Source of the DNA: Camelus dromedarius
Lineage: Eukaryota
Reading direction: 5' to 3'
Assembly: GCF_036321535.1 (NCBI RefSeq)
Contig: NC_087436.1
Location: 372,001 to 436,000, forward strand
DNA length: 64,000 bases
A program made the position numbers and the translations under genes. Below are positions 1 through 64,000 of the stretch, piece after piece (positions within the stretch are counted from its first letter, which is position 1; each line of letters starts with the position of its first letter). The notes under the pieces were generated by a model. The model saw only the letters and a program-made list of their open reading frames with translations. It ran no database searches and was not told the DNA's origin.

Positions 1-1049
1 CCTTATAGTGAATGAAATTGAGTACAGAACATTGCATTTCTTCCTTTCTATTTAGAGTTCTCTTACTGCATAAGGCTGCCTGCTTTGGAACATCAGCTCC
101 ACCACCAGGGCGCTGTCTTTGTGTTGGTGTGATTGCATTTACACAGTGCATGTAATCTGGGCTTCCTCAGCCCCAAACACTCCAGTGCAGAATTACGGGC
201 TGTAGCCATCTCTTAGTCACGCAAATACTTCTAAAATTATATGATGCTAGAAAAGAAAAAAGAGAGAGAGAGAGACTGCCCTTATCAAAATTCCTTTCAA
301 TTCTAACTGCAAACTGTTGTTGAGCAGCTCTGGTTTCCTTTGGATATGAATATATACATTTCTTTGCATGTAACCTGGATTTTGGACTAGAACACCAAGC
401 TCTTGCTGTCCACAAGCCACAAAAATAGTAACCATATTGCATACGTGTGAAATATTTTATTCTTTTTTTCTGAGAAAGAATCCTTGAATTTGGGACTTCA
501 GCTGTGATTTTTGCTTTTTGCTTCTCCCACCCCTCTTGTAATCTCTCACTCCTTCACACGTGGCCCCCAAGAGGTCGTGGTCTCAAAGGAGCAGGCAAAC
601 ACCCAGTTGGTCTCCATGCAGTGCTGATGTAGAGGGAGCCCAGTCAAGACCTAAAGGACATTATCAGAGAGGACTTCCTGGAAGAAATGGGCTCTATATT
701 CAGTTGTGAGGACATAGTAAGTGTCAGCCAGGAGAAGGCATGAAGAGGATGGCTCACGTGGCAGGAGCAGCCCGGGCAGAGGCCTGGAGGCTTGTGGGGT
801 GGAAACTCGGGGAGTGTGCCTTGTGTGGTCCAGGGTGGAGGGTGCCCTGCTGGGGAGGACACTGGAGATGACCTTGGGTGGAGGGCTTTGGATGAGTTTG
901 GGTTTTACTAGAACTGACACAGGAGGCAGTGAAGGGTGTCAGCAGGTAGTGACCCTCAGAAAAGGTACTTCTGGTTTTGCTTCTGATATTCTACAGAAAG
1001 AAGGGTCGGGATGGGTGAGAGCAGGAATGTCTGTAACTTGGAGTCCCAC

Positions 1050-1440
1050 CCCGTCATTCATTTATTCATTACACGAGCACTTCTGAGTGGCCAGGGGAGA
1101 GAGAGTGGACCCACATTAGTAAGCAAAATGTATTTGCTTCTTGGGAGCTTAGCAGTGTCAGAAGTTGACAGCCTAGAATGTTCTAGGAACAGAGGAACAA
1201 AGTGTGGAGGTTGGGGGGAGGGAAGGCTTCCTTGAGAAACAGTCAAAATGAGCCTGGAGGCAAGTGGGAAGTAGGAGCAGGTCAGGGGGCCCCTGAGGTT
1301 ACTGGGGACCTGGGAACTGTGGTGAGGCTGGGTGAGCAGTGTCGGGGGTGGGGCTAGAACTCCACCAGGGAGCCTCTGAAGGGTTTGAAGTGGGGGTGAT
1401 GTAATCAAATTTGTGCTTTGGGAAGGCTGCCGTTGCTCTG
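1050..1440 (-). mobile_element. L2 fragment (paralog at ~61775-62155)
   Basis: cattcatttattcat end, gggaaggcttccttgag and gatgtaatcaaatttgtgctttgggaagg blocks. Confidence 0.6.
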
Positions 1441-2623
1441 TGTGTATGTGTGTGTGTGTGTGTAGCGGGGAAGAGCGGGAGGGTGCCACCAACTGGGGGG
1501 GGTCATTAGAAAACCATTCACAGGCTGGGAGGTGACCCGTGGGAGAGGGGCGTCGGGGCTGCTTGGGGACGGCAGGGGCAGTGTGGATGACGGATTTTCT
1601 TATGGGGAGGGCTTGTTAGCGGGGCCGCCCTTGCGGCGCCTTTGGGCTGGAAGAAAACAGATGGAGGCCACCAGGTGGACTTTCCTCTTCTCTCCTTCCC
1701 TGCCTTGTGTGATGATCTTAGCTCAGCCAACATTTGGAACAGAAGAGCTAAGTTCCAGGGTAGCCCAGGACTTTGTTGAGCTCGTTCGAGTGAGATCTGA
1801 TAGGATTTAGGTTTGTGTTCAGATCTGCATATACACTCTGGTAGAAATATCGGTCTTTTGGATTTCCATAGGTGTTTTATTCTTGATAAAAATTGCGTTC
1901 TTGGTGAGAGGAAATTTAATAAAGCTGTTATCTTTCTCAAAATAAATCATATCTTTTAAGAACATTAATATTCAAAAAATAGGAATATTTAAAAATGATA
2001 AGGCTTTGGTGTAGTTTCTTTGGTTTCCTAGTTAATGTGGACTTAGAGCCTTTGCATTACTTAATAGCACATCCTTGTCAGTATTTAAAGAGCTGTTAGG
2101 GAGCGCCCCAGGCCCCACCTCTCAAAGCATCATTAAAGTTTGCTCTGAAATAGTGAGGTCATAAAGGTCTTGTTTGCAGAAACCAAACAGTTGGTTTATA
2201 ATATGCAGCATAGCTCCCTTTATAAAATAATAATAGGATCAACATTAAGAATGTGGAAGATAATTGATTTATTTGAAATCTGAAACATAAACTTTTTTGT
2301 GCTAAAGTTGCAACTGGAAATTTTGAAATGAAAAATCCTACTGTAATATAATCCACGGAATACATATGGGCCTTTCACGATTCAAAAGTAACTGCGCAGT
2401 GGTTTTTGAAGTCAGGAGCATTCCAGCTCAGATACTGGCATTGATGGTTGCTGGTTTTCAATGGAAGAGCCTAAATTTGCCTTCTTAGCTGTTTTTGTTG
2501 TTGTTGTTGTTGTTGTTTGTAGTAAGAGGGTTGAGTAATACTTTGACAGCATGATTTTGGGGAAATTTAGGGTTAGATGTCGTGTAACAGCAGTGAGATA
2601 TTTCCATGCATTTTATTTTCCGG

Positions 2624-2744
2624 ACATCACCAGGGCACATGTGTGGTTTGTGCTTGCAGGCAGGGATGCTGCAGTACTCCCTGATACATCACCGTTATGT
2701 CCTGGAGCTGCTCCGGTCAGTGAATGATTTTCTGTGGCTTGGAG
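2624..2744 (+). pseudogene. TRAPPC9: TRAPPC9 second coding exon (exon 3) remnant, copy A
   Basis: Encodes [32 protein letters not shown] vs recalled [32 protein letters not shown]. Donor GAG|gtaagg intact; acceptor reads ttttccgg (AG lost); 5' part deleted. Confidence 0.93.
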
Positions 2745-3084
2745 GTAAGGTGGTCTGATGCAGATGATCAGATGTGTAGTTAAAGTGCTATTACTTGAAA
2801 TAAGAGAAACCAAGAAACATGGCTCTAACAATACAGGATGAGGGAGGAGAACTGGCTGAGCTACTTGCAGTGGGGCGTCTTCTCAGGTGATTCCCTCCCC
2901 GTGATTCCTGCCAATATCCTCCCCAGCCCTGCACGGTAATGCTGCCAAAGCAAGCATGCACTTTGCTCAGAAACGCAGTGAATTTCCTTGTGCCTCCATT
3001 GGTTGGCTTTTTTTTAAAAGCACATCTTGCCCTTTGTTTAATGTCATCCCTGCTAGTCACCTCTTAAACTCATTCTTCTGGACC

Positions 3085-3640
3085 TCGTCCATACATAGCT
3101 GCTGAATGGATGAACAGAATGTAGTATCTCCATGTATTGGAACATTATTCAGACGTAAGAGTGAATAAAAAAGAAAAAAAGATAAAGGGGAAGATGAAAA
3201 AGTCCACCTGTTCTGGGAAGTCCACCCTGACTGCTCAACCCGACTTTTTCCCTTTGAAACACAATATCTTATGCTCCAATCTACTCTTTTTGATAGTACT
3301 TACCACCTTCTAATAAACTTTAACGTTTTCAAAAAAAAAAAAAAACAGAGCGAGATGCTGATACCACTTCAACATCTACGAGCCTTGATAACAGCATGTT
3401 AAGTGAAAGGAACCAGACACAAACGGCCACATATTGTTGATTTCAGTGATCTGAAATGCCCAGAATAGGCACATGCAGAGGCAGAGAGCAGGTGATGGTT
3501 GCAAGGGGCTGGGTGGAGGGGGGATGGGGTGTGACTACTAGTGGACAGGGGGTTTCTTTTTGGATGATGGAGTGTTCTGGAGATAGATGGTGGTGAGGGC
3601 TGCACAACCGTGAGTGTGCAGAAGACTGCTGAGCGCTGTC
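3085..3640 (+). mobile_element. L1MB-like 3' end interrupted by another repeat fragment (~3200-3340)
   Basis: gaatggatgaacagaatgtagtat...atgttaagtgaaaggaaccagacacaaacggccacatattg...gatggtggtgagggctgcacaac. Confidence 0.85.
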
Positions 3641-4705: not shown

Positions 4706-4794
4706 ATTTTTTTAAATGGAGTTACTGGGGACTGAACTTAGGGCCTCATGCATGCTAAGCACATACTCTCCCAAATGAGGTATAATCTCCTCCC
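4706..4794 (-). mobile_element. tRNA-derived SINE (Vic-1-like)
   Basis: tactggggactgaacttagggcctcatgcatgctaagc. Confidence 0.75.
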
Positions 4795-8944: not shown

Positions 8945-9070
8945 GGTCCTATCCCATCCCCGGATGTGAGGCTGGAAGCTTTCTGAGAAGGCCAGTCAGA
9001 GGCCAAGTCCACCAATCAGAAAATGATGAACTACCTCAAAGTGGGTTTAATAGAAGAAAAGGGCTTCCAG
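8945..9070 (+). other. Candidate decayed coding exon of an unidentified gene
   Basis: tcag|...CAG|gtaatc, 126 nt, phase 0-0, 42 codons with a single TGA. Confidence 0.45.
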
Positions 9071-9930: not shown

Positions 9931-12121
9931 TGTCTGCACTTAAAAATAAATATTGTAATACACAAAAGAGCTCTTAAACACCATCATGGGACATAGTCTC
10001 TGTATAGGCATTTGAACACGTATACTATATCAAGAAGAATAAATGTTGTTGGGACAAACCTTTCTGAATCTGTTAATGTGCTTAAAAACGATCATAGCTA
10101 GTGATAAACACGAGACTTGGATCCAGTACTTCTTAGGGTCTGTTTTGTCATCATGGGAAATTACATTCTACAGAGAAGGCTAATTGGGTCTCTTTGATAA
10201 TTGGATGGTTTAGCAGATGATCAAGGCTTTCAAAAGCTGACAGTTTTGTATTTTAAACTAATTACAAATTTATCTTCTAGAAGTTGGAAGTCCTAAGCTT
10301 GTGAAGTGCCCAGTAATCCAGGGGGAATATGTTTGTGTCTCTGTGAACGATTGTGTGTGTGATTTCAGGAAGGTAGAAATAAGTTCCATATAGACTTCTG
10401 ATACCTTTCTCCTCCAGTTCAAGGTGTAGGCATATATTTACACAAATAAATTGATGTTCTTTTGTCATTTGGCATATTGGGAATAAGAGGTTCTCATACT
10501 TGTTTCAGAAGGGTTGGGGAGCATGAGCTTAGAAAACGGGAGGAGAAAGAGGCAGGGAGGCACTTCACACTTTGTGCAGGATTTGAGGAACAGTAGCTTT
10601 TCTTTTCTCTTTTATTCTAAAGCAAACTGGCACTGAATCGTAACTTACTATTACTCAGAATTGCTTTTCTAATAAGATATAAGTGCCTCAGATTTTTCAA
10701 GGCAACATGAATGATGAAATGTGTTTTAACATTTATCTTTAAAAGTAGTTTTATTTTTCAAGGAAAAGGCTATAGCCTGTTCTTTCTTCCAGCGGCAAAA
10801 GAAATTCTCATTGATCTATGTACATGATCTATGTGCTTAGTTTCTTTGGGGTTTTTTGGTTTTTTTAAGTGCTTGTTTCATTGTGGTGTGAATGAATGTT
10901 TAAAATTTTTGGATTTTCATCTTTAGAACATGCTGATTTATCAGAACTGTTAAAAACTTGATTGTTCTTTGGTCGTTGTTTGGTGGAGCACCCTATTGAT
11001 TTCTGCTGTGTGTTAAAGAGGGAAATTCTTCCTCTAGCCTGCATATCATTAAGTGAATGGCTTGCCGTGTGCCTTTAAAATTCATTGAATGCATTGAGCA
11101 TGTTTGTCCAGTGAATTTTGAAATGACTCATAGTATTACTTTGTTTTTTTTTCTGTGGCTTTTGCTCCTCTCCACAAGAATTTGAATTCCCTGTTGCATT
11201 TTGTATACGTGTTCTTAACAGGGGAAGATATTTTGAATTTTTTAAAGAGGTGGGTTTTCCTATCCCCTCTGAATGCCTTCTGTAATTGATACAACAAAAA
11301 TCTGTTATTGCAGTGCTAAATAATTTCATAAACTATTTTTTGGCTTAATCAGAAGCAATGAGAAAGAGTGATAATAAAAAATACGAAAACCTTCCTTCCT
11401 TTGAAGAATATAAATCAGGTGGTTAGGCTGACGCATGCTTTGTGCCTGACATACTTACTCTCATGTCATTGTGTATCATGATTCGGAGATGGAGATACTT
11501 CAGGTTTATAGATTTTTGTTTTAACATTTGTGTTGAATTCTTTCTTCAGGCTGATGTTTCCTGTTTGGTTTGTGGAATGTGTAGAAGAAGGGAAACAAAT
11601 GCTTTTTTTTTTGTTTGTTTTCAGGAGGCCTGAGTTGCTGATGAGAAAACAGTTGAGGGTGGGCTGAGGAACAGAGTGACACTCCCTCTCCTCCCGGCTG
11701 AAACTGATGAACAATAAAATCAATTAAGTGTATCGATATTTGACCAATTGAAGTTAACGAGCTCAAACTGGCTAGTTATGCCCAATGGAAAGTATTGAAT
11801 TCACCTGCAGATTTAGGTGCTTTACCAAGTAGAAGCAGCTTAGAGCAATCAGAAATATCAATCCTATGATGAGCTATAAAAAGTATATAATATCTTTTAT
11901 TTTTGAAACTTTTCTAAGTTAAGTTGTGTAGAGCTAAAATTAAGTTTCAAGCACCAGGAGTTATGAGTGTGGGTGGTTCTGTGGGATCGTTATTCAGGGA
12001 TGTGCATAGACACTTCTAGAGTGGCTGAAGCTGGCAGGAAAAGACCCAAAACCAGGATTTGTCATCCCAGGATATTCTCCATAATGGTTCAATGTGGGAG
12101 CCCTTGATTGGGTTAACAAAT

Positions 12122-18328: not shown

Positions 18329-20379
18329 GTGAGTCTCATGGCTCGGAATGGGGTGGTTCGGCTCATTGACTGGTGTTGGCCAGAAACAGAAAATGACATC
18401 CTCCAAGAAGCCTGGGATTTGTCAGTTATGTTTTGTCAGTTCTGTTGACTTCAGAAAATGCTTTCACAGTTCCTCTCCATCTGAGGAGGCAGCGTGCTCT
18501 CTTTGCAGCATCAGGAGCTCAGGGCCACGGGATGGTGGAGGCTGACTTCACTGCCGTCAAGACAGCTGAGGTAGTCACTGCAGGCGTGGTGCTTTCACGT
18601 AGTGCATTTCATGTTCTTTAATAGGTTTCAACAGGGAGTTAATTGAGTTAATTAACATTTAATAAATATGATGCTTTGTTGTAAAGACAGTTATAGGCAG
18701 TATATAAGCTGTGAAGACTTAAAAAACGGTTTCATTACTTAAATTTCAGCAGGGAAGATTTAGTTTATCTTATTTATGCCTCTCTTTTACAGTAACAAAG
18801 AAACAAGACAGAAAAAGCAGAGGATGATTTCTGTTCTTCCTCTCGGCTTGCAGGTGCCCTCACCTCCAGTGGCATCTATCCAGACACCAGCACTGACACT
18901 GGCCGTGCTCAGATCTGCCTCAGCCCTGAAGACACAACTGACAAATAGAAGGGGGCCATGCCCTGTTACAGCAGGTGCTCTCACTTTGTGGGTCCTTATG
19001 TAACTGCGCATTGTTATTCAGGATCGCCCATTCTACATTGTTTGAAGCTGCTGCGGTGTCTCCTAGTTATTTGTTTCTGTAAGTACTCATGTATTTTCTC
19101 CAATGCATGGTACTAGACATCTAAAAATGCTTTTTTCAGATGAAAAGTAATGTGTATTTAATATAATAAGTCTGAAAAAAGGGGCAAAAGGGGGTATCCT
19201 TGTCCCACTACTCAGAGACAGTAATTAACACTTTAACATCTATTTTCTGTCCTTTTCGTCAGTGTGTATCACCTCTGTCATAAAAAGCAGCGATCACTCT
19301 GTGCCTGTTTATTGTGTGGAGACCTCCATTTTCCATTCGGCTTATTACATGTTTTTCTGCAATATTCTATCTCCGCTGACATGATTTTTAATGACCAGTA
19401 TAGCATTATGTCTTGTGGAGGCATCGTCCATTTTACTTCGGACTTAAATAAACTTTTAAATTCAAGTATACTTAACTGAAATACTGAAAAGAGAACTGTG
19501 GTGGTACCGAAAGGCCCCTAAATCCCTTCCCCTTATTTCCTGAGTGTAAAAGCTGTTGACAATGTGGTGTATATATTTCATGACCTTTATGCCTATGACA
19601 TATATATATACCCATAAATACATACATACCTACATACATACACTTATATGAGAAATCTATGTATATGTGTGTGTATATATGCTTTATTGAAAAATAAGAC
19701 CGTACTATATGTGTTCTGCAGCTCGCTTTATTCACTCACGGGTATATCATAGACGTCCTCCCACTCCAGACTCACCCGGTCCTTTCAGATAGAGAGGAGG
19801 GGTCTCCTGATGTGCAGGTGTGGTCTCTTGTGGAAGGACACCTTTGGTGGGAGAGTGATGTGGACAAGGCCCTGGACAATGCCGAATCGCCGGCCCCTTC
19901 AGAGCCCACATCTTGCCGTGATTTACCGCATCATTTTCTTGATGTTGGACCCTTAAGTTTTCTCCATTTTCCACTTTCAGAAAGGATGTTTGACTGGCAT
20001 CCCTCTTGTACAAACATACCTGTGATCTTGTATGAGTATTCCTTTAGTTAAGGCTTCTGGAAATTTAGTCCCTGGATGTGACATTTACATTCATCACAGG
20101 CTCCTTTCAAGTGACTCTAGAAATTGCTCCTCCAGTGGGGAATGAAAAGCTGTAGAATAATTTATGTAACCAATTCTCAATCACTGGATATGATTTCACT
20201 TCAGCTTTTCATCCCACCATTGTAAACAGTGCTGTGTAAATGCTCTGATGAGTACATCTTTTGAACTGATTTTTTTCTAAATGAAATGATTCCTAGAAGT
20301 TGAGTTGAGTCTGTGTGTACACACGTTTTTCAGAGTTTACATATCCATTGACATGTCGTCCTCCAAAATGTCACTCACA

Positions 20380-23976: not shown

Positions 23977-24519
23977 AGTTACCACGTCAAAGCTAGTTCT
24001 GCCTCCTGAATGACAGGCCAGTAAATTGGGAGATGAGGTGTTAGAGCAAGGAATAGTGACTTTATTTGAAAAGCTGGCAGACCCAGAAGATGGCATACTG
24101 ATATCCTGGAGAACCCTCTTCCCCAAGTCAGAATTCAGTCTCCTTTTTTACTAAACAGGGGTGGGGATGTGGTTGGTTGTTGCAAACATCTTGCTGTACG
24201 AATTGATTTCCTTGGAATCCTTTGTTCTTGCAGCTGTCCATGTGGGTCAAATCACGGTGACCCTTTAAAACCTCCAAAAAAAAAAAAAAACAGGTTATTC
24301 TCTATTTTGCAAATTGCCATCTCTACATAAGTGTAGAAGAGCTAACATCCTTAAAGATCAGAGCCCGCAGAATAGGCCCTCCTGGATATTTCAGGCTAAA
24401 GGCAACTTTCTTTTACAAAAGGTGCAGAGCTAGCATGTCTAAGCCTAGAAAACAGGGCACAGGTTTAAAGCCAAAGGAAAACATCTAACATTAAGTCAAA
24501 TTTTTTCTTTTCTATTACA
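23977..24519 (-). mobile_element. Solo LTR (ERV1-like)
   Basis: Reverse-complement homolog of 48549-49032; - strand AATAAA at ~24061; candidate TSD ATTT/ATTC. Confidence 0.8.
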
Positions 24520-34474: not shown

Positions 34475-34528
34475 TATATATATATATATAATAATATATA
34501 TATTATTATTATATAATATATATATATA
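34475..34528. repeat. (TA)n-rich quasi-palindrome inside the ERV
   Basis: Directly visible. Confidence 0.9.
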
Positions 34529-39486: not shown

Positions 39487-39598
39487 GGGGGGGTAGGTAA
39501 TTAAGTGTATTTATCTGTTAGTGGAGGCCCTGGGGCTTGAACCCAGACCCCGCGTATGCTATACACACGCTCTAACACTGAGCTTTACCACCCGCCCC
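39487..39598 (-). mobile_element. tRNA-derived SINE (Vic-1-like)
   Basis: Homologous to 53948-54074, including the ggtaatta.g tail motif. Confidence 0.8.
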
Positions 39599-40567
39599 TT
39601 CATCTTTTTCTTTTTGCTTTAGCTGCCAAAAATCTTACAGCTGAATTTCTAGTCGGCCTTTAACACTTGCCCTGACTCCAGGGAATCCATTTTTATGACT
39701 TTACGTCCCCCTGGTTTCATTTAAGTATTGAATCTCCAATTTCTCTTCACTCTCAGTTTTGCCTTTTTGTTGTTATGGTTGTTAAGCTGTGTTTAAAAAA
39801 TTGTTTAAATTCTCTTTTAGCAGGAGGCTGAAAGTAAATAAATATGTAAATAAACATCACACTTAAATGCTTTTATACATTCTAAGCTGTTTAGTAGTTA
39901 CTTAAAAACTGGACTGATATTAAAGTTATAATATTTTTACATTATTTTTTAATTTTTTCTAAATGTATAGCTGATTTACAATATGATATGTTTCAGGTTT
40001 ACAACAGTTGCTCCATTTATACTTATTGTAAAACATTGACTGTATTACCTATGTTGTAAGATACATCCCTCTAGCGTGTTTACGTTACATGTAGCAGTTT
40101 GTATAAGAAAGTTGGGTAACACAGAGTCTGTGGCGTGGCTGTGTCTGACTCAGGTTCCAGGTCACCTTGCCTGTCAGACCTCAGGCCCTCACACCTGTCT
40201 GCAGGGCAGCGAGTGGAGGCAGCTCTCATCAGCGCTGGTACAAACCTCTGAGTGGCAGTGACAGCAGTGACTGTGGACGTGCAAAGTTTTGTTCCAGGAG
40301 ATTTACATGCATTTCTTCATTTATTATTTAAAGCCCTCCTGTGAGGAATCGTTTTATGTTTTTAATGAATAATACACTTTATTTTTAATTTGATAGACTT
40401 CAAACTTCCGGAAAATTTACAGGAGTAGTACAAAGAACACTTAGATACACTTCACATAAAAGGGCAGTATTTGTCCTTTTGTGTCTGGCTTATTTCAGCA
40501 TACATTTTTAAGGTTCATCCATGTTGTAGCCTGAAACAGTAATTTATTCTTTTGGTTTAATAATATC

Positions 40568-42030
40568 TTTTTTCTTTTTTTTTTTTTTGTTTTTGGTCTA
40601 TTTAAAAATGGTTTCATTGAAGTCTAGTCAGTTTATAATGTTGCATCAGTTTCTTGTTTACAGCACAACACTTCAGTTATATAGGAATATACATGTATTC
40701 ATTTTCATATTCTTTTTCAACATAAGTTACTATAAGATATTAAACATATTTCCCTGTACTATACAGTATAAACTTGCTGTTTATTCTATACATAATCAGT
40801 ATCTGCAAACCCTCAACTCGCAAGTTATCCCTTCCCACACCATCTCCCCTCTGGTAACCATAGTTTGGTTTCTATGTCTCTGTGGTTCTGTTCTGTAGAT
40901 AAGTTTATCTTTTTGTTTGTTGGTTGTTTTATTTTTTTTTAGATCCCACATGTGAGCGATCTCATATGGTATATTTCTTTCTCTTTCTGGCTTACTTCTC
41001 TTAGAATGACATTCTCCAGGTCCATTCATGTTACTGCAAATGGCATTATTTTATTATTTTTTATGCCTGAGTAGTAGTTTATGGTATAAATATACTGCAA
41101 CCTCCTTTTCCAGTCATCTGTCAGTGGACATTTAGGTTGTTTCCATATATTGGCTATTGTAAATAGTGCTGCTGTGAACATTTGGGGGAAGGGGTCTTTT
41201 TGAATTAGGGTTACTTCTGGATATATGCCCAGGAGTGGGATTGCTGGGTCATAGGGGAAGTCAATTTTTTGTCTTTTGGTGAATCTCCATACTGTTTTCC
41301 ACAATGGCTCCACCAAACTGCATTCCCAGCACAGTGTAGGAGTGTTCCATTTTCTCCACAGCCTCTCCAGCATTTATGGTTTGTGAACTTCTGAATGATG
41401 GCTATTCTGACTGCTGTGAGGTGATACTTGATTGTAGTTTTGATTTGCATTTCTCTGATAATGATATTGAGCATTTTTTCATGTGCCTATTGGCCATTTG
41501 TATGTCTCCATTGGAGAAAAGTTTCTTTAGCACTTCTGCCCATTTTTGGATTGAGTTGTTTGTTTTTCTTTCTTATGAAGTGTAAAAGCTGTTTATATAT
41601 TCTGGGAATTAACCCCTTGACAGTCTCATTTATTGTAAATATTTTCTCCCATTCCATAGGTTGTCTTTTTGTTTTGCTTACTGTTTCCTTTGCTGTGCAA
41701 AAGCTTGTAAGTTTAATTAAACCCCACTTGTATATTTTTGCTTGTATTTCTATTGCTTGAGTAGACTGCTCTAGGAGAACATTGCTGAGATGCATGTCAG
41801 ATGTTTTGCCTACGTTTTCTTCTAAGAGGTTTGTAGTGTCTTGTCTACATGTTTAAGTCTTTAAGCCATTTTGAATTTATTTTTGTGTGTGCTGTGAGGG
41901 AGTAGTCTAACTTCATTGATTTACATGTAGCTGTCCAGTTTTCCCTACACCATTTTCTGAAGAGGCTGTCTTTACTCCATTGTATGTTCTCACCTCCTTT
42001 GTCAAAGATTCAATGACCAAAAGTTTTTGG
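40568..42030 (-). mobile_element. 5'-truncated LINE-1 (ORF2 C-terminus, 3' UTR, polyA), relatively young
   Basis: ORF fragments EWEKIF..., [14 protein letters not shown]..., PYDPAIPLLGIYP..., MFTAALFTIA..WKQPKCP; T tract at 40568-40595; frameshifted. Confidence 0.95.
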
Positions 42031-42165
42031 GACTATTCTTGATAATTTTTTTACCGATTCATTGATGGATGGATATTGTTTGTAACTTTTGGCTACTCTG
42101 AATGATACTGCTATGAATATTGATGTGCAAATTTTTGTGAGAATATGTTTTCATTCTGTTGGCTG

Positions 42166-42311
42166 TACAGTTGGCCCGCCATATCTGTAGTTTCCACTTC
42201 ATGGATCCAGATGGCTGATTGTAAAGGGACTCAAACATCCTTGGATTATGGAATCCAGGGTGGTGGGTTCCTGAAACCTATCCCCCGAGGATACTGAGGG
42301 ATGACCCTATA
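42166..42311. mobile_element. MER2/Tigger-like TcMar DNA transposon fragment
   Basis: tacagttggcccgccatatc...ggatactgagggatgaccctata, imperfect inverted ends with TA flanks. Confidence 0.7.
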
Positions 42312-42757
42312 TGTAGGAGTAGAATTGCTGAGCCATATGATAACACTAAACTTTTGAGGAAACACCAGGCTTTTCCAAAGAAGCTGCACCATTGCCCCTT
42401 TCCAATGGCTGCATAGTGAGGGTTCCCATTCTTTTGCCTCCTGACCGACACTTGTTATTGTCCGTGTTTTCATTATAACCATCCTAGTGGGTGTAAAATG
42501 AGATCTCATTTTAATTTTGATTTGACTAGTGATGCTGAGCAACTTTTCATATGCTTATTGGCCATTTGTGTATCTATTTAATTCCTTGGTAAATTTAAAA
42601 GTTGGGTCGATTTTCTTTGTATTGGTCAGTTGTAAGCATTTGATTTATATCCTGGATATTAGTCTCTTATTAGATATATGCTTTGCAAGTTTTTTCTACT
42701 ATTCTGCAGATTGTCTTTCCACTTTACTTTTTTTAAACATTAAGACAATTTCTTTAT

Positions 42758-42849
42758 AGGGGAGGTAATTAGATTTATTCATTTATTTTCTTAATTTATT
42801 TATTTATTGCCAGGCATGCACTCTATCACTTGAGCTACCTCCTTCCCCT
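42758..42849 (-). mobile_element. Internally deleted Vic-1-like SINE
   Basis: ggggaggtaattaga tail joined to gcatgcactctatcacttgagcta head. Confidence 0.6.
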
Positions 42850-45800
42850 TTCATTTCACGTTCTTGATGATTTCTTTTGTAACAATTGGTTTTAATTTTG
42901 ATGAAGTCCAGTTTATCTGGTTTTTTTTTTTTTATCACTTCTGCTCTTGGTATTGTATCTAGGAAACCATAACCTATGCTAGGACCACAAAGATTTATAC
43001 TATGTCTTCTTTTAGAAAGTTTATAGGTTTAGATTTTATGTTTCTGTCTGTGATCCATTTTCAATTAATTTTTATTTGTTATATACAATAGGGGGTTTCA
43101 GATTCTAAATTCATTCTTTTGCCTGCAGATACCCAGCTTTCCCTGCACCATTTGTTGGATAGACTATTCTTTCAATGGAGTGTTGTTGGCACCCTTGTTG
43201 AAAACTGACTGTAAATGTAAGATTCCCCCCTGGAATTTTTACTGTGTCTCATAGATTTATGTATCCAAACTTATGACAGTACCATAATGACTTGAGTACT
43301 ATAGATTTGTAGTAACCATTAAAGTGAGCCCTCCAACTTTGCTCTTCTTTTTCAAGATTGTTTTGGCTGACCTGGGTCCCTTGCACTTCCATATGAATTT
43401 TGGGATCAGTTTTTCAATTTTTGAAAAGAAGTCAGCTGGAATTTTGATAGCGATTCCACTGAATTTGTAGATCACTTTGGGGAGTCTTAACATTTTTAAC
43501 AATATTGTCTACTATTCCATGAACATGGGATGTCTTCCGTATATGTTGATCTTCTAAAACTTTTTCAGTGATACTTCAAATTGTTTAATGTACAAATCTT
43601 GTAAATTTTTGTTAAATGTATCTCCCATTTTATTTTTAATGCTGTTGTAAATGGAAAGGCTGAGCTTCTTAAGGGTGGGACTATATATCAATTTGTTTAT
43701 TTCTAGGATTCCTACACATCAAATACACTAGGTTTATATTTGCTACATAAATCTATCCACAACTCTTCCCTCCCCTGTGTTATAAGAAACCAAGACCCAG
43801 GTTAAGCTACCTGAACACCTATGTGGAAGTGAGAAATGAGACCCTTGGGTGGGGCTCTGTGCAGATGATACTGAGAGCTTATGTAGGATGGCTTCATCTT
43901 AATTTCTTTTAAACAATCCTTTCAGTGTATATAGTCAGATACATTAAGAACATGCCCTTTTGATGTACAGAGGAGCTAAGACTATCATTTTCAAGTAATT
44001 TCTAGTGAGAACGTTGTACTTGAAACCTAATTTGTATCTATCTTTGAAGATTTATGTTTCAGGAGCTTTGACTAAAGAACACCTGTCTTTATTCAATAAC
44101 AACAACTAAATGCTCAAACAACATGTAAGAGTTTGAGCTGTAACTGGAGGCAGTGCTTACCTCTCCCAATACACATGTGCTGATCTGCTCAAAGGGGTTC
44201 GTCCAACTATTTGTCATTAGTCTGTTGGACAAAGCCTTAAAACATTGATTTAAGGTTGCTGGAATGCAACATATTCTTATTAATACTAAGTAAGCCCATA
44301 TTGAGTGCTTACTGAATGTTGGGAATTGTCCCTCAGACTCACATGAATTTTATTTCTCTGAAAACCGTACATATTTCCTTGTTATTCCCACTTTACAGAT
44401 AAGGAGACTGAGGATTAAGTCTTCTCTCTTTTTGGGGGAGCTCATTATCAATGACTGGAAGTTGTAAGAAATAAAGATATTGATTCATCCTGAGAAAACA
44501 TTTTTCTGAGAGTCAGCATTGAAGAAGGTGACCACTGAAGAGGGTGATCATTGTTCGAGTGAGACGAGCCCCGTGTGGTACGGAGTCAGCATCCCAGTCC
44601 TGGACACGGCACTGTGCTGCATGGTGGGTGAGGCGGCGTGGCCGTGCAGGGAACGAGGATGCCGGGCCGTTGGGCTGTGCTCAGGCCTGGTGAGGCTTTC
44701 TCTGAAGAGCAGTGGACCGTCATTGACAGATTTTAAGTAGGGGAGTGGGGTGCTCTCTTAGATCACATTTGTGTTTGTAGAATGCTTGCAAACATTCAGT
44801 AGGCTCGGCAGAAAGTGATGTGACGAATCAGAGTAGGGTGGCTGCGAGGTGTAGCAGTGTTCAGTTTTCAAGTGGTTTTCAGTCCCAGGTTTGTGGCTCA
44901 GTAGCCGTGGCACTTTGGATGATGCACTCAAGGAAGTGAAACAATTTATCTAATCAATTAAAGCAGTGATGTACCGACTTCCCAAGACTGCTGTGGCAAT
45001 CCAGTGAGATTACGTGTGCGCAGTGTGCAGCGTGGTCCCCAGCACAAAGACAGTGCTGAGTGAGTGCCATTGAGTACCTGGTAGGACAGGTGTGGGTGGT
45101 GGGACTCCATGACTGAGGAAATCTGGGCCCTGAACGAGGGGTCCAGTCACATCTGTGAGTGATGGGCCTGAGCTGGGGTAGGGAGGGAGACCTTGTCCCC
45201 CGACCAGGGGCCCTGGGCAGGACTGCTATTGGAGGAGAACCGTGAAGTCAGCTCTTTGCAGGAGGAGTTTGAGGTGCCCTTGAGACATCTAAGTGCAATG
45301 TCACGAGCTCAAAGAGGAGGTCTGGGCCCGGGCTGTGCATTTTCCTATAATCTCAATCCCTGAGGATGCTGAGGTTTTATCACTGAACGTGAAGGCATAC
45401 TTTACAGGACAAGTGAATAGTAGTATCATCTCTGTCATCAAAGCTCACGTCTTTTTATTCATCACTCACTTTGTTAATTGGGTACTTACAGAGCTCACTT
45501 TACCACCCTCACTTGGGTTCAGGCTCCACAGTAAAGAGCTGGTGAGCCTCCCTCTTTTCCAGAAGAAGACACATTTAGCTGGTAGCCTTCTGTACCTCGC
45601 CAGACTTAGAATTTTAGTTTGTTGTATTAATTCTATTTTCTGTTGGCCATCTCCTGACAGGAGAGACGTTTTACCTCATGATCATGTTTCAATTAGCTGT
45701 TACTGAGAATTGCTGATCTAATCCATAGTGTATGTATTATATTAATTTTATACAGTATTTATCATTTTTCTGTCTTTGTCCTTTAATTTTGTATGCCCCT

Positions 45801-47795: not shown

Positions 47796-48051
47796 GTAGT
47801 GCCATGGAGAAGGAAGTTTGGGCAGCTTTTTGTAGGGTCCTGGAGGATTTCTCTCTCAGCGTCTGGGTGCCTCTATTGAAAACCCTTCATAGCTGTCTGG
47901 CATGCTGTAAAACCACTCCACCTGTTTTGCCCTGAAGATGTGTTCAGTTTATAACTCATCTCTACTCCTTGGAAAACAACTCAATAAAAACTCAGTTGGT
48001 TTTCCACCAGCCATGGGCAGGGATGAGGGATAGCATGTTACTATTTTATAA

Positions 48052-48093
<42 letters not shown>

Positions 48094-48161
48094 TAATAAT
48101 AATAATAATATTAATAAATAACAACAACAACAACAATAATAATAATAAAATTAATAATAAT
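48052..48161. repeat. (AAT)n/(AAC)n compound microsatellite
   Basis: Directly visible. Confidence 0.97.
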
Positions 48162-48548
48162 AAAAGAAGTTTTAAAACAGCACTGGGCACATAGGAGAGA
48201 GTCAATAAATGCTTCCTGGCTGAAATCAAAAGTGATGGCTCAGTGATTCCATGGCTGCTGTATTTGCTGAACTTGTTACTCCTTTGCTCCATTACACTTT
48301 TTTTAAACTGAAAAAGAAACACATGCATATGGTTAAAAACAATTCAAACAGCACAAAAATACACAAGTGAAAGAAGTTTTCCCTCATCCTCTGTTCTTCC
48401 AGCCGTCCCTGGAGATGCCACTGTTTACTATCCTTTGGGTGCTTTTCCAGATATGCTATGCACATTCCCACCTATGCATGTAAATTCCTTTAAAGTTTTA
48501 GTTATTTTTAACTTAAAGGGATTTAAATCCTCAAGTGGCTTCTGCCCG

Positions 48549-49032
48549 GGTAATGGAACAGAACAAATCTGACTGCATATTAGATTTTTTCATTTGACTT
48601 TAACCGTATGCTCTTTCTCCTAGGCTTCATCTTGCTTGTAAAATAGTGTTGCCTATAGCCTGAAATATACAGAAGAGCCTATTCTGAAGGCTCTGACCTT
48701 TAAGGATATTTAACACTTTTCCTTTCATAAAATGATAACAAGTTACAGAATAGAAAATAACTTTTGTTTTGTTGGAGGTTTACAGAGATTTGACCCAGGC
48801 AGATAGCTGCAAGAACAAAGGATTCTAACAACAAGGAATTCCTACACCAAGAAGTTTGCAACAACCAAGCACGTAGGAAACGAGCCTGAATTCTGACTTG
48901 GGGAGATGGTTTTCCAGGACATTAGTTTGCCATCTAGCTCTACAGAAACTTGCTTTTCCATGCCGCAGCAGCGGGTCTTCCAACTTATTGGCCTGTCCTG
49001 CACTGAGGAGAATGAATTTGGACTCGGTAACA
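48549..49032 (+). mobile_element. Solo LTR just upstream of the TRAPPC9-like promoter
   Basis: Shares gcctgaaatat..gcctattctg..ggctctga.ctttaaggat and gaattctgacttgggga blocks with the 24-kb LTR; ends GGTAACA. Confidence 0.8.
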
Positions 49033-49369: not shown

Positions 49370-50450
49370 TCCGCGTGGGGACAACGGGTGTGATCCCCGT
49401 AGGGGTTCTGCAGAGGCATCGGCTGGAGGGCTGGACCAGGGAGGTAAAACTTGAGCTGCGGGCCTTGAAGGGTTACAGAATGGTACAGAGGCAGGACTGC
49501 CGCCTCCTTCGGGGTGCCCCAGAAGTAAAGCTTTTTATTTACATCTCCGCTACTCCCCTCCCCTCTCCAGATCCCTACCTACTCTCTGCTCCTCCTGTCC
49601 ATCTGTCTCCCTCCACTTTTCCCCTCCTCTCCTCCTCCCCCATCTTCACCCTCCATCGATGCCCCAGCCTCTATCACAGAAACTAGAGGATCTCTGGCCT
49701 TCCTACGCATGCGCAGTCGGTGCCAGCTGGACCGCGGGTTGAAAGCTCCAGCTCCGAGCTGGGAATCGGCCACAAAGTCTTCTCAGCTCTGTCGCTCGGT
49801 AGGCCTTTGGCTCCTGCCCGAGGCCGGGGCCTCTGGCTGTGGAAATGCAAGGTGGGGGCTCCCGGGAAAGGGCTCAGGCGGCTGCGGGAGGGCGGTCCTC
49901 GTGTCAAAGCCCGCGAGGGAGCGAGTCTGCGTGTGTTCAGCTGAATTGCTCGGGCCAGACCCCTCTGCTCGCGCCACCTACCCCGGCGCCCCGGCCACAG
50001 CTGTCCAGTGCCAGGTGTGCACCTGCCGCTTCTCGCCCCAGCCAGGCTCCCCTCAGTCCGCGGCTGGCGACACCTTCCCCTCTCCCGCCCACGAGTCCTA
50101 TCCTCCCGGGCTTCCTCTCCTTGGACGCCGGCTTGTCCCTGCCCCTGTGAGGGCTGTGTCCCGGGTGGGCGGGTTCTGCGGACCCGATCTGGGGGGCGGG
50201 CGGCTGGGGCTCGGGCTGGCCTCCGAGCAGGGCTGCAGCCCGCGCCCCCCCACGCTTTCCCTGCCCTGTGACCACGGGGCTGCCCTCCTCTCCCTTTCCA
50301 GCTCCCTGAGGACAAGCTCAGCGGCATGCGCCCTGCACCACGGGCTTAGAGCCTCCGGCTGTAAAGCCCAGTTTCTCCTGGTGGAGTCTGGAAAAGGGAG
50401 CGCCAGTGCTGAGGGAGTTTCCGTCTCCCCCCTCAGTGTTTCTGCCCCAG
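49370..50450 (+). promoter_or_regulatory. TRAPPC9: CpG island / duplicated TRAPPC9 promoter and exon-1 region
   Basis: Largest GC/CpG-rich block in the window. NRF1-type CGCATGCGCA at 49706-49715, GC box near 50195, donor-like CAG|gtgtgc (~50013) and CAG|gtaagt (50450). 49441-49470 encodes EVKLELRALK, matching recalled EVKFELRALK of the long human TRAPPC9 isoform. Lies 4 kb upstream of the coding exon. Confidence 0.8.
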
Positions 50451-53947: not shown

Positions 53948-54074
53948 ATTTTTTGAGAAGGGTAATTAGGTTTATTCATTTGTTTCATTTTTTAAAATGA
54001 GGTACAGGGGATTGAACCCAGGACCTCGTACATGCTATGTATGTGCTCTACCACTGAACTGTACCCTCTTCCCC
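53948..54074 (-). mobile_element. tRNA-Ala-derived SINE (Vic-1-like)
   Basis: - strand ggggaagagggtacagttcagtggtagagc...gaggtcctgggttcaatcccc (A and B boxes) with A-rich tail. Confidence 0.85.
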
Positions 54075-54507: not shown

Positions 54508-55079
54508 GGCCTGCAACATGAGCATCCCTGACTACGTGCAGTGTGCTGAGGAATACGAGACTCTCCCCGTGGTCTTCCAACCCGTGGGGATCATTTCAGA
54601 CGACAATTTCTTTTGCATCTATAAACGAATCTCCTTGGTGAGCCAGATCAGCCCGTGCGGCTCCCAGTGGGCACTCTGTATCCACTACAGGCACCACTAT
54701 GCGTTCGAGAATGCGTGGAGTGACTTCCAGACCCACCGCACGGTCGTGGGCCTTGTCACCATTACCGACTGCCTCTCGGCCAAGGCCTTCGAGAAGCTCC
54801 ATGTGCAGAGGAGCTGTATGGCACCTCGCTTAATGACTCTCAGCTCTTTGTCTTTGTGCTGCATGGGGAGGTAGCCGAGCAGCCGCGCACCGACGTGGAC
54901 TTCAAACTACGAGGACTGCAGGATGGTGGAGAAGAGGATCAAGGACTTCACTGAGTCACTCTTCATCTTGCTCAAGTCCAAGTGGCTGGATGGGACCCCA
55001 ACAAGTCTGGGGAAAGGATCCCCCTCCTCTGCACCTTGTTTGAGAAGGAGGACTTCATGGGACTGGACACAGACAGCAG
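54508..55079 (+). pseudogene. TRAPPC9: TRAPPC9 (NIBP) first coding exon, duplicated unprocessed pseudogene copy
   Basis: [38 protein letters not shown]...[17 protein letters not shown] matches the recalled TRAPPC9 N-terminus ([38 protein letters not shown]). Homology continues across frameshifts to ...[11 protein letters not shown]. Acceptor ctctctgcag|, ATG at 54518, donor CAG|gtaagt. Frameshifts near 54809, 54903 and 55000; stop at 54872-54874. Confidence 0.96.
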
Positions 55080-55315
55080 GTAAGTCTACCTGGAGGCCCG
55101 GCCACCCTGGCTGTGTGCCGGGTTCCTTCCCTACATCCAGGAAGGGATCAGCAAGGAAGAGGGCTGTCTTGTACCCAAGGGCGGAGGGAGGTGCAGCCCG
55201 ACGGTTTACAGACATTTAAAAGTGAATCTGCCTTTGTTTCAGAGAGATCCTTTTAGGGTCAGTGTGGAGACTTCCTCCAGCTTTTCAGCCAGGACCCCTG
55301 GTGGGACCCCTGGAG

Positions 55316-58600: not shown

Positions 58601-61600
58601 TGGACACTTCATCCTTCACTGACTTGGTCTCGCTTGATACAGGCCAGACATTCTGAAAGAGTCCATCACATTCTCGGGGGGAACAGAACAGAAGTAAGTC
58701 TCGCAAGTAGAAGGAGTCTAGGCTGTCCGGGTTGGCAAATGCAGGCTGGGATCTGTGATTGGTGGGCTGTGCCCTGGACACAGGTCTTTCCCGTGGCTCA
58801 CGAGCGCCCAGGGGTCGGAGTGAAGACAGCCTTGCTTGGGCTTCTCCATCCTCATCTGCTCAGTGGCAAGTGTGTCTGCTAATAGGAGCTCCAACAGACC
58901 TCGGGACCTTCAAAGCTCAGATCACGGGAGAACTTTGAGTCCCTTCTCCAGGGCCTCCTTTGTGAGAATCCAGTGCCTTCTGAGGTGACCGGTGGCAGGA
59001 GATGCCTCCCCCTCCAGGGAGCACCCTTCGGAGGACTGTGACTCAGTGCACCTTGCTGTGAGCTTGTGGGGATCCGGCCGTCGTCCCTGCAGAACCAGTC
59101 TTGAGATGGGCTTAGCGACGGAAATGACAGGACTAATAATCCAGGCCAGGGCTGGAGGGAGGGAACAGGGGAAATTGAATGTGACCTCAAACACCTAGGT
59201 GAGTGCTGGGTCTGTTACTAAAATGGGGAGCATGGGAGGTACCTTCCATAAATTGAATTCCAGAGTAAATCTTGGACATGAGGCATTTTTAAGATGCGAT
59301 TTTTCGTCCAAGTTTGGACTTCATAGAGGCACTCGGGTCAATGAGCCTGGGGCTGAGTTGAAGGAGCCGGACTAGAGATACACGTTGGGAGTCGTCATTC
59401 TTAGCTGGTGTTCACAGCCGCGCATGTGAATTAGATCATCTTGAGAGCTGCAGACTGAGGCTGAGGGGGGGCAGGGCTGTGCCTGGGTTGGAGGAAAGCC
59501 CAGACCATGCAGCTTTCGTGTGTCAGTCAGCGGCGTTTGGGATTTTCAGGGCAATGTCATTTATCCTTAAGGGGCCGGGGGGTGGGCAGGGCCAGTCAGG
59601 AAGAAATCTGAATGGAGGGTCGTGGCCACGTGTGTGTCTTGGGAAGTTGCAGAGTCTGCAGGGTCCGGGAGGGTAGACTCCTCAGAAGCTGGAGTTGGAT
59701 TGGGGCGTGGGTTGAAGATAGTCACACTAACATATCAGGGAGGGAAGAAGGCCTAGGGAGTCCCCGCTCTTCCTGACTCGCTTTCCAATGAACAGAAGGC
59801 AGACAGAGGATCTGAGGTGAGAAGGGATGGGCGCTGGGAGAGGAGCCAACCTGGAGAATGGTGCTTGAAAAATTCTGGAATAGTCTCCCTGCAAAATAGA
59901 GGTTAAAAAAATCCAGAGTCTTAAGAACATTGATAGTGACTGGGGAGGAGGCAGTTGTTTTTCTGGCCTCCTAAGGGTAAGGCATGTATCCAGGGATACA
60001 CAGAATATTCGGGCAGTCTATTCCGGGCATTTGGTACCGGGTAAACAGCACAAGTTTAAAGGGGGACAAGGGCAGCGGAGGGAAACTAGCCAGGCCCCGT
60101 GTCAGGTACCAGTCGGCCGCCCTACTTGCGTGTTGCATTCACATCCATGCCTCCCAGGTGGGCGGTGGCAGCCCCCTTTTGCGGATTGGCAAGCCTTCTC
60201 AGAGGGGTTAAGTTATTGGTCCATTTAGAGGGTAGTAAATGCTGTAACAGGATTCAAGCAGGGTCTTGTCAGACTTCAAGGGTGTGTTTTCTCTACTAAT
60301 TCCGGTACCTCACTGTTGTACGTAAAATTGTGAAGTGGGTCAGTTTTGGGGCCTTTCAGAAAAAGTACGATTTAAATGCCTCAGGACTGATTCACAAAGC
60401 TCTGTGTTCTTTGATTGTTCTGAAGCACCGCAGTGTTTTACGCCCCACAGAGGTAAGGTCTTACTCCTTTGACGATGAAGTGGTTGCAAATGATGTACAG
60501 GTTCAAAACCAGACTTAGCAGCTTCTGAAGGGAAACTTTCCAATTCTCCCTTGATAGACTTTCTTCTACGGGATGTAGCTGTGCTGCAGCATAGGCCTGA
60601 GCTGTCCGTATGGATTGTGGGTTTGATATCCAAATTTAGCATAAAACAGTCAGATGAAGAAAATCAACGTTCACAATTTATTTTTGGGTTTCATTAGACA
60701 AGATATACTATCAGGTAATGGCCCATATAGCTAATGAAATTGAGGACAGAACATTGAATTTCTTACTTCTTATTTAGAGTTTTCTTACTGCATAAGTTTG
60801 CCTGCTTTGGAACATCAGCTCCTCCACAAGGGCGCTTGTCAGTTTGTTGGTGTGATTGCATTTACACAGTGAATGTAATCTGGGCTTCCTCAGCCCAAAC
60901 TCTCCAGTGCAGAATCACGGGCTGTAGCCATCTCTTAGTCACGCAAAAACTTCTAAAATTATATGATGCCAGAAAAGAAAGAAGAGAGAGAGAGAGAGAT
61001 TGCCTTTATCAAAATTCCTTTCAATTCTGACTGCAAACTGTTGTTGAGCAGCTCTGGTTTCCTTTGGATATGAATATATACATTTCTTTGCATGTAACCT
61101 GGGTTTTGGACTAGAACACCAAGTCCTTGCTTTCCGCAAGCCACAATAATAGTAGCCAAATTGCACACATGTGAAATATTTTATTATTTTTCTGAGAAAG
61201 AATCCTTGAATTTGGGACTTCAGGTGTTATTTTTGCTTTTTGCTTCTCCCACCCCTCTTGTAATATCTCACTCCTTCCCAAGTGGCCCCCAATAGGTCGT
61301 GGTCCCAAAGGAGCAAGCAAACACCCAGTTGGTCCCCATGCAGTGCTGCTATAGAGGGAGCCCTGCCAAGACCTAAAGGATATTATCAGAGAGGGCTTCC
61401 TGGAAGAAATGGGCTCTACATTCATTTGTGAAGACAGAGTAAGGGTCAGCCAGTAGAAAGCATGAAGACTGTGGCTCATGTGGCAGAGCAGCCCGGGTAG
61501 AGGCCTGGAGGCTTGTGCGGTGGGGACTCGGGGAGAGTGCCATGTGTGGTCCAGGGTTGTGGGTGCCCCTGCTGGGGAGGACACTGATGAGGGCCTGGGG

Positions 61601-62155
61601 TGGAGGGCTTTCGAAGAGCTTGGGTTTTACTAGAACTGACAGAGGAGGCAGTGAAGGGTGTCAGCAGGAAGTGACCCTCAGGAAAGGTACTTCTGGATTT
61701 GCTTCTGATATTCTACAGTAAGAAAGGTCGGGGCGGACGAGAGCAGGTCTTGCTGTCCCTTTGAGACCCACCCCATCATTCATTTATTCATAACATGCAC
61801 ACTTCTGAGTGTCTAGGGGAGAGAGGTTGGACCCACATTAGTAAGCAAAATATTCCTTGGGAGCTTAGCAGTGTCAGAGGTTGACTTAGCCTAGAATGTT
61901 CTAGGAACAGAGGAACAAATTGCGGAGGTTGGAGGGAGGGAAGGCTTCCTTGAGAAACAGTCAAAATGAGCCTGGAGGCAAGTGGGAAGTAGGAGCAGAT
62001 CAGGGGGCCCCTGAGGTCACTGGGGACCTGGGTACTGAGGTGAGGATGGGCGAGCAGGTTCGGGGGTGGGGCTAGAACTCTACCAGGGAGCCTCTGAAGG
62101 GTTTGAAGTGGGGTGATGTAATCAAATTTATGCTTTGGGAAGGCTGCCTTGGCTC

Positions 62156-62158
<3 letters not shown>

Positions 62159-62202
<44 letters not shown>
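62159..62202. repeat. (GT)22 microsatellite
   Basis: Directly visible; paralog at 1439-1463 is shorter and interrupted. Confidence 0.97.
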
Positions 62203-62204
<2 letters not shown>

Positions 62205-63347
62205 CGGGGAAGGGGGGGGTTGCCACCAACTGGGGAGTGACATTAGAAGACCATTCACAGGCTGGGAGGCCACAAGTGGGAGAGGGTCGTTGGGGCTGCT
62301 TGGGGACGGCAGGGGCCGTGTGGATGCCGGATTTCCTTATGGGGAGGGCTTGTTAGCTGGGCCGCCCTTGCGGCGCCTTTTGGCTTGAAGAAAACAGATG
62401 GAGGCCGCCAGGTGGACTTTCCTCTTCTCTTCTTCCCTGCCTTGTGTGATGATCTTAGCTCAGCCAAATTTGGAAGAGAAGAGCTAAGTTCCAGGGTAGC
62501 CCAGGACTTTGTTGAGCTCGTCCGAGTGAGATCTGATAGGATTTATGTTTGTGTTCAGATCTGCATGTTCACTTAGCTAGAAACGTCCTATCTTTTGAAT
62601 TTCCATAGGGGTTTTTACTCTTGATAAAGATTGCTTTCTTGGTGAGAGGAAATTTAATACAGCTGTTGTCTTTCTCAAAAAAATCATATCTTTTAAGAAA
62701 TTTAATATTCAAAAAATAGGAATATTTAAAAATGATAAAGTAAGGCTTTGGTGTAGTTTCTTTGGTTTCCTAGTTAATGTGGACTTAGAGCCTTTGCATT
62801 ACTTAATAGCACATCCTTGTCAGTATTTAAAGGGCTGTTAGCGCCCCAGGCCCCACCTCTCAAAACATCATTAAAGTTTGCTCTGAAATAGTGAGGTCAT
62901 AAAAGTTTTGTTTGCAGAAGCCAAACACTTGGTTTATAATATGAAGCATAGCTCCATTTTTAAAATAATAATAGGTTCAAAATTAAGAAAGTGGAAGATA
63001 ATTGAGTTTTTTAAAAGCTGAAACATAATCTTTCTTGTGCTAATGTTGAACTGGAAATTTCGAAAATAAAAATCCTACTGTAATAACATCTACGTGGAAT
63101 ACATATATGCTTTCCCGTTTGAAAAATAAGTGCGCAGTGGTTTTCGAAGTCAGGAGCATTCCAGCTCAGATACTGGCATTGATGGTTGCTGGTTTTCAAT
63201 GGCAGAGCCTAAATTTGCCTTCTTAGCTTTTTTTTTTTTTTTGTAGTGAGAGGGTTGAGTAGTGCTTTGCCAGCATGATTTTGGGGCAATTTGGGGGCAG
63301 ATGTTGTGAACCAGCAGTGAGATATTTCCATGCATTTTATTTTCTGG

Positions 63348-63468
63348 ACATCACCAAGGCACATGTGGGGTTTGTGCCTGCAGGCTGGGATGCTGTAGGA
63401 CTCCCTGGTCCATCACAGTTTTGTCCTGGAGCTGCTCCGGTCAGTGAATGATTTTCTGTGGCTTCGAG
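63348..63468 (+). pseudogene. TRAPPC9: TRAPPC9 exon 3 remnant, copy B
   Basis: [31 protein letters not shown] with an in-frame TAG; acceptor ttttctgg; donor gtaagg; same 121-nt length as copy A. Confidence 0.93.
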
Positions 63469-64000
63469 GTAAGGTGGTCTGATGCACATGATCAGATGTG
63501 TAGTTAAAGTGCTATTACATGAAATAAGAGAAACCTAGAAACATGAGGGAGGAGAATTGGCTGAGCTGATATCGGTGGGGAGTCTTCTTAGGTGACTCCC
63601 TCCCCGTGATTCCTGCCAATATCCTCCCCAGCCCTGCACGGTAGTCCTGCCGAAGCAAGCATGCACTTTGCTCAGAAACGGACTGAATTTCCTTGTGCCT
63701 CTGTTTGTTGGCTTTTTTTTTAAAGCACATCTTGCCCTTTGCTTAAATGCCACCCCTGCTAGTCACATCTTACACTCATTCTTCTGGAAGTCGTCCATAT
63801 ATAGCTGCTGAATGGATGAACTGAATGTAGTATCTTCATGTAGTGGAACATTATTCATACGTAAGGGTGAATAAAAAGGAAAAAAAAATAAAGGGGAAGA
63901 TGAAAAAGGCCACCTGTCCTGGGAAGTCCACCCTGACTGCTCAACCCACCCTTTTCCCTTTGAATCCCCACCCCTTATGCTCCACTCTAGTCTTTTTGAT

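Follow-up and report, generated by a model that had tools for sequence, protein, structure and literature searches.

A camelid family of partial, unprocessed TRAPPC9 pseudogenes, arrayed in tandem and dispersed among chromosomes

The window analyzed here, a 64-kb stretch of the dromedary (Camelus dromedarius) genome (contig NC_087436.1, positions 372,001 to 436,000 of the forward strand), carries damaged exons from the 5' part of TRAPPC9 (also known as NIBP), the gene for a subunit of the TRAPPII complex. In all likelihood, the window comprises one unit of a tandemly multiplied and dispersed family of unprocessed pseudogenes, derived from the 5' part of TRAPPC9 and specific to camelids, along with 3.3 kb of the adjoining unit.

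Self-BLAST of the window finds a sole long direct repeat, in which positions 1 to 3294 match positions 60723 to 64000 at an offset of 60,722, with 2965 of 3332 positions identical and the homology reaching both window edges. These segments are the visible parts of two units on the plus strand, A (1 to 3294, containing the end of TRAPPC9 intron 2, exon 3, and the start of intron 3) and B (60723 to 64000). In a global alignment of 3240 columns, they differ by 273 substitutions and 25 indel events, which corresponds to a divergence of 8.4% and, on the Kimura two-parameter (K2P) scale, to a distance of 0.090. The differences are evenly spread, at 5 to 10% per 250 columns, which speaks against both a chance resemblance and a contig overlap assembled twice. 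Thus, the direct repeat at about 60.72 kb that the original prediction had placed at the window ends is indeed there and is open on both sides; its reported TRAPPC9 exon 3 is found in both copies by tblastn (2636 to 2743 and 63357 to 63464, E of about 1e-10). Segmental duplications are longer than 1 kb and at least 90% identical. The repeat seen here is at least 3.3 kb long, with introns and repeats included, and its identity is 89.0% with gaps and 91.6% over ungapped columns. The window contains two adjacent head-to-tail units, as a macrosatellite would, and gene models that cross units are found elsewhere; however, given their divergence and a longest identical run of 126, A and B are not the near-identical, homogenized neighbors of a macrosatellite.

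Exons 2, 3, 6, and 7 were mapped by tblastn with the full-length bear TRAPPC9 orthologue (P0062); all exons are on the plus strand and are numbered as in the human gene. The exon 3 remnant of copy A (2608 to 2744, with an approximate start; score 136, matched by 0 of 50 shuffles) retains its GT donor and has AT instead of AG at the presumed acceptor; the remnant in copy B (63332 to 63468) has lost the same acceptor and contains an in-frame TAG at 63396 to 63398. A probable exon 5 remnant at 10793 to 10819 consists of 27 nucleotides between AG and GT and reads AKEILIDL. Its score is weak, being the best match of residues 287 to 295 in 16 kb with 9 of 200 shuffles as high, and the splice sites and length lend it support. 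Exon 6 (18854 to 18974; tblastn match 18853 to 18975, E of 2e-9) has an in-frame TAG at 18946 to 18948, and exon 7 (25680 to 25802; match 25693 to 25797, E of 8e-9) is the last TRAPPC9 coding piece of the unit. Exon 2 of unit B (54508 to 55079; match 54518 to 55080) starts with an ATG at 54518, has intact AG and GT sites, and contains 98 codons in the parent frame, with deletions of one and four codons, followed by frameshifts. Upstream of it lies the TRAPPC9-derived promoter and first-exon region (49400 to 50450), with a GT donor after position 50450. The surrounding 49 to 51 kb are richer in CpG (GC content of 0.53 to 0.59, CpG observed/expected ratio of 0.48), and the 5' ends of camelid gene models fall there. 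Within this region, the stretch at 49432 to 49476 weakly resembles the upstream extension found in a human isoform (10 of 15 residues, E of 0.095); the N-terminal extensions of the other 6 of 7 orthologues had no match in the promoter region. The window thus reads exon 3, 5, 6, 7, junction, promoter, exon 2, and exon 3, that is, one unit and 3.3 kb more.

With a frameshift-aware aligner, exon 4 and exons 8 and 9 score at shuffle level (27 of 50, 18 of 30, and 19 of 30 shuffles as high, respectively). Residues 378 to 500 are at shuffle level in 25.8 to 49.6 kb, nothing past residue 376 rises above noise, and no later 40-residue piece of TRAPPC9 reached a score of 55. The promoter and exon 2 were expected upstream of copy B and are found there, whereas the gene structure is not fully intact, because exon 4 is undetectable and all exons are damaged. 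A functional gene would contain an open frame of about 1140 residues with the PF08626 domain; the window has none, exons 2, 3, and 6 have frameshifts or stops, and exons 8 onward are undetected. By eye, none of the open reading frames (ORFs) of 130 residues or more looked genic, although pieces of other genes may be present at 26 to 50 kb; exon 2 matched no solved structure. Exons are spaced by 8 kb, 16 kb, and 6.7 kb, and the introns and promoter region are retained, which rules out a processed pseudogene that arose by retrotransposition. The unit is therefore an unprocessed (duplicated) pseudogene. It shares with its parent the exon order and sequence over residues 1 to 376, with 66 to 68% identity to mammalian orthologues over the first 98 residues. 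Unlike the parent, it is truncated after exon 7, lacks exon 4, carries frameshifts and stops, exists in many copies, and bears no sign of purifying selection.

Exon order implies that intron 7 is joined to DNA upstream of the promoter, and this junction would lie somewhere between 25803 and 49400; camelid models P0007, P0127, and P0136, mapped onto the window, run from exon 6 or 7 to sequences at 42 to 44 kb. The interval contains a decayed, provirus-like long terminal repeat (LTR) element of 7.2 kb (29058 to 36266), whose LTRs (29058 to 29545 and 35776 to 36266) are 89% alike. It is flanked by GACT and GAAT, a likely 4-bp target duplication, and its interior is AT-rich (GC of 0.28 to 0.38 per kb at 30 to 35 kb) and has no ORF of 130 residues. 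At 0.114, the K2P divergence of the LTRs equals or exceeds that of units A and B, so that the element may predate the A-B split. Since this insert adds to the spacing, the predicted 60.7 kb is right as a distance between units and probably inflated as a unit size: the basic unit probably measures about 53.5 to 54 kb without the provirus (54.0 kb with a solo LTR).

The gene models of the family are confined to camelids. The 113 longer homologues include 23 camelid TRAPPC9-like models at 71 to 95% identity, the nearest being Bactrian camel models at 94 to 95%, and 90 orthologues at 58 to 68%; all 32 short homologues are camelid. Family models are found on 8 distinct Bactrian sequences of 41 to 164 Mb and on at least 11 alpaca sequences of more than 20 Mb (one accession series each), the alpaca number rising to 17 if every record is included, although different assemblies may then contribute the same locus twice. 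In the dromedary, five models are located on one 1.47-Mb contig and two on one 81.8-kb contig. Models mapped onto the window follow the unit order and use intronic pieces at 12.9, 16.2, 17.7, 24.0, 42 to 44, and 56.5 kb, which indicates that other copies share much of the unit. Among the 124 camelid models, which are computed gene predictions and not reads, 25 (24 from alpaca and 1 from dromedary) run on from the rear of one unit into exon 1 or 2 of the following unit; this count leaves out P0267, a 26th back-stepping model that is an artifact of a coordinate cut. Exon 3 is used by none of the 124, and the C termini vary from copy to copy. The family is thus both tandem and dispersed. The anticipated camelid-specific, head-to-tail TRAPPC9 duplicons are borne out by these data, and the notion of a young, uniform amplicon has to give way to that of an old pseudogene family spread over many chromosomes.

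The age of the family can be read from shared lesions in exon 2. The one-codon deletion is present in 57 of 57 family rows and the four-codon deletion in all 56 rows that reach it; past codon 98, 41 of 56 rows continue in the same shifted frame, the other 15 end or splice around, and none is in the parent frame. In a tree of 58 distinct rows (98 columns, 11 duplicates dropped), the family forms one side of a branch with 100/100 support and includes two well-supported clades in which Camelus and Vicugna are mixed. Together, the shared lesions and mixed clades indicate that one already broken founder was amplified before the camel-alpaca split. Judged from these alignments, the family is older than that split, which took place more than 11 million years ago according to PMC13751797. 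Over the tree stretch, eight alpaca rows that come from several contigs do not differ at all, which points to recent spread too. At codons 46 to 49 (54653 to 54664), VRDS has become PCGS throughout the family; one step of this change takes more than a single substitution and might represent a short compensating pair of indels.

Several observations weigh against this interpretation. About 1.05 units are visible at this locus, and support for unit crossing in Camelus comes from one dromedary model and one wild-camel model (the latter by eye), both draft predictions. The best DNA runs contain 0.46 to 0.57 of the sampled words of the 8-kb promoter-exon 2 stretch (20 of 24 rows were listed, all of them kept as contigs). 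The orthologue cluster members listed, at most 15 per cluster, include no full-length camelid TRAPPC9, and because the camelid parent is absent from the tree, the latter does not test descent from it directly; an intact parent is presumably present elsewhere in the same genome.

The arrangement at this locus might be a local duplication of two units within a family of otherwise dispersed single units. The visible overlap is 3.3 kb, and A and B are 8.4% apart, as far as subfamilies are, and hence have not been homogenized recently. On the other hand, alpaca models P0146 and P0022 span three units each, and the clustering of dromedary models on the 1.47-Mb and 81.8-kb contigs also speaks for longer arrays, which makes a mere pair improbable. 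Even less credence is due to an assembly artifact, that is, a false duplication or noisy consensus that would also mimic the excess of transversions described below. Multicopy regions are prone to misassembly; however, the even divergence, the ordinary share of indels (25 events against 273 substitutions), and the spectrum of isolated mismatches, along with a low transition share found separately in Vicugna and Camelus, make such an error very hard to credit.

The copies might instead constitute a selected new gene family of the core-duplicon type, with the first 98 to 190 codons or read-through RNAs being functional and driving the spread. The promoter region and exon 2 splice sites are retained, copy B, like dozens of annotated copies, has an open frame over codons 1 to 98, and RefSeq gives many isoforms per locus. 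Besides, six RNA runs, three of them labeled reproductive system, contain 0.10 to 0.31 of the words, which are small shares and no evidence of tissue. However, 49 distinct family rows have a median pairwise identity of 0.79, no higher than the 0.82 that a neutral simulation yields at the distance between A and B. Nor do conserved sites change less: orthologue-invariant sites have 2.04 alternative residues per site and variable sites 1.65 (p of 0.09), in a protein-level test on copies that annotators picked for open frames. By our estimate, a neutral lineage keeps the frame roughly one-fourth of the time. Models P0001, P0007, P0018, and P0022 have no Pfam match, and C termini differ between copies. 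The lineage-specific spread over many loci that marks core duplicons is thus seen without a selected reading frame at the protein level. By this measure, the family drifts neutrally with no sign of purifying selection, and a selected gene family is unlikely, if slightly less so than the two-unit duplication.

The preferred history of the pseudogene family would start with a single genomic copy, extending from the promoter to intron 7, that decayed first, its exon 2 acquiring a frameshift in addition to two in-frame deletions, as the shared lesions show. The broken copy would then have been joined head to tail and multiplied, as the gene models show for other loci and as is likely for this one. 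Records and tree show that spread to many chromosomes started before the camel-alpaca split and that each lineage saw further bursts afterward. The mechanism may have been unequal crossing over inside arrays, together with ectopic exchange among regions of different chromosomes that are rich in repeats and probably located near centromeres or on short arms; the initial head-to-tail joint could also have come from a circular intermediate, which would look the same here. The retained promoter and strong exon 2 splice sites probably give rise to read-through transcripts that are annotated as TRAPPC9-like genes.

The copies also differ in an unusual way. Units A and B are separated by 119 transitions and 154 transversions, a ratio of 0.77 (p of 3e-15 versus 2:1), with 90 of the 273 substitutions in the A/C-G/T class. 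The 9% distance and the isolated mismatches (65 transitions and 75 transversions) rule out saturation or misalignment as the source of the low ratio. Amino acid changes on the family tree, assigned at 85 of 94 sites, amount to 82 transitions and 83 transversions, with 53 more events unclassified; the transition share is 0.52 in Vicugna rows and 0.49 in Camelus rows. Simulations on the same tree give 0.63 to 0.68 (kappa of 3 to 4, CpG x8) or 0.60 (kappa of 4, no CpG effect), and the observed spectrum fits them only at kappa near 2. The shared stem changes, compared with the pig orthologue, comprise 16 transitions and 1 transversion, with 4 unclassified (Fisher p of 0.0005). Events per opportunity are 0.84 for C>T, 0.43 for C>A, 0.30 for A>G, 0.20 for C>G, 0.17 for A>T, and 0.04 for A>C, with the window serving as the guide to the codons of other copies and CpG sites already consumed on the stem. 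Weighing against a peculiar process, the LTR pair is less odd, with 30 transitions and 22 transversions, a proportion that a sample of this size cannot distinguish from 2:1. As read from these alignments, the spectra show that the copies mutated after amplification under a transversion-rich, C>A-heavy process.

Unrepaired 8-oxoguanine classically leaves a C>A excess, and poor repair of oxidized guanine in heterochromatin is our best guess at the cause. Six alpaca copies (P0170, P0174, P0177, P0179, P0181, and P0182) end at the same residue (..AKAF or ..AKTF), where the window has GAG; a G>T change to a stop is the likely cause, which would fit the C>A/G>T excess. For comparison, the transition:transversion ratio is 2.29 to 2.44 for camel single-nucleotide polymorphisms (SNPs) (PMC6946651). 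Human segmental duplications also have more transversions than unique DNA, but at a ratio of 1.78 and with a C>G excess (PMC10172114). Human acrocentric short arms combine a tenfold mutation rate with an excess of different transversions, namely, C>G and A>C (PMC12724521), whereas the camelid copies show an apparent C>A excess among fixed differences. If the mutation rate is raised here as well, 8.4% overstates the age of the A-B split. It is conceivable, although we consider it rather doubtful, that the family marks a camelid compartment, shared by nonhomologous chromosomes for more than 11 million years, with a different germline mutation process (transitions fewer than transversions, C>A dominated, and probably faster) and with the TRAPPC9 promoter as a transcribed core that seeds chimeric RNAs. 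If so, the same exon, at 16:1 before amplification and 1:1 after it, would be a natural before-and-after experiment on heterochromatin and the repair of oxidative damage. The shift exceeds by far the one reported for human duplications, and it lends itself to an easy genome-wide test.

Primate pericentromeric and core duplicons (NPIP/morpheus, TBC1D3, and GOLGA8) are lineage-specific, intron-bearing, promoter-carrying partial copies that are interchromosomal and yield chimeric transcripts. The camelid family resembles them in being lineage-specific, intron-bearing, promoter-carrying, and spread between chromosomes; it differs in that the founder was already frameshifted, no conserved or positively selected frame is seen, and the units are 54 to 61 kb long and tandem. 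Closer to home, the pseudogene-rich blocks of alpaca (NEK10-, ATF5-, and FMN2-like) likewise contain multicopy decayed gene fragments in repeat-rich regions of camelid genomes (PMC13751797). However, those blocks are described there as dispersed, not simply tandem, and absent from camel assemblies, whereas the TRAPPC9 family is head-to-tail and common to Camelus and Vicugna; TRAPPC9 has no matches in the text and one supplement of that paper. No published description of the family was found in the openly accessible literature, although figure supplements or closed-access work, such as the VicPac4 paper, may mention it. The family thus appears to be undescribed in print; as an old family of camelid pseudogene duplicons, it is nonetheless of an ordinary kind. 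Being large and apparently common to all camelids, it bears on genome finishing and karyotype evolution.

Such copies can also mislead gene mapping and the choice of candidate genes. TRAPPC9 is located on human 8q24. Human chromosome 8 corresponds to dromedary chromosomes 25, 26, 29, and 31 (PMC9547437, Table 1), and two dromedary genome-wide association studies (GWAS) propose TRAPPC9 as the candidate gene for signals at Chr14:31.08 Mb and 31.37 Mb (PMC10357240 and PMC8027435). As Chr14 is not a counterpart of human chromosome 8, these signals probably represent pseudogene copies, and the SNPs behind them may be differences between copies. Other signals at 30.8 to 31.1 Mb of Chr14 are labeled POFUT2, DDX27, ARFGEF1, and CSE1L (PMC10357240, Table 2), genes assigned to other chromosomes by that table or by synteny. 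This part of Chr14 is likely a mosaic duplication hub that underlies several of the GWAS signals.

The window contains several other repeats. An Rfam scan returned just two weak tRNA-like matches (39522 to 39592 and 53998 to 54068, minus strand), both at elements resembling the heads of tRNA-derived short interspersed nuclear elements, and a similar sequence is found near 4708 to 4773. The stretch from about 40400 to 43650 is AT-rich, CpG-poor, and L1-like; by eye, we take it to be a younger L1 piece nested inside an older one. An (ATA)38 microsatellite occupies 48048 to 48163, about 1.5 kb upstream of the promoter region. Finally, an inverted pair at 24088 to 24518 and 48550 to 48935, with 72% identity, looks LTR-like by eye, and alpaca models P0016 and P0022 use its first member as an exon.

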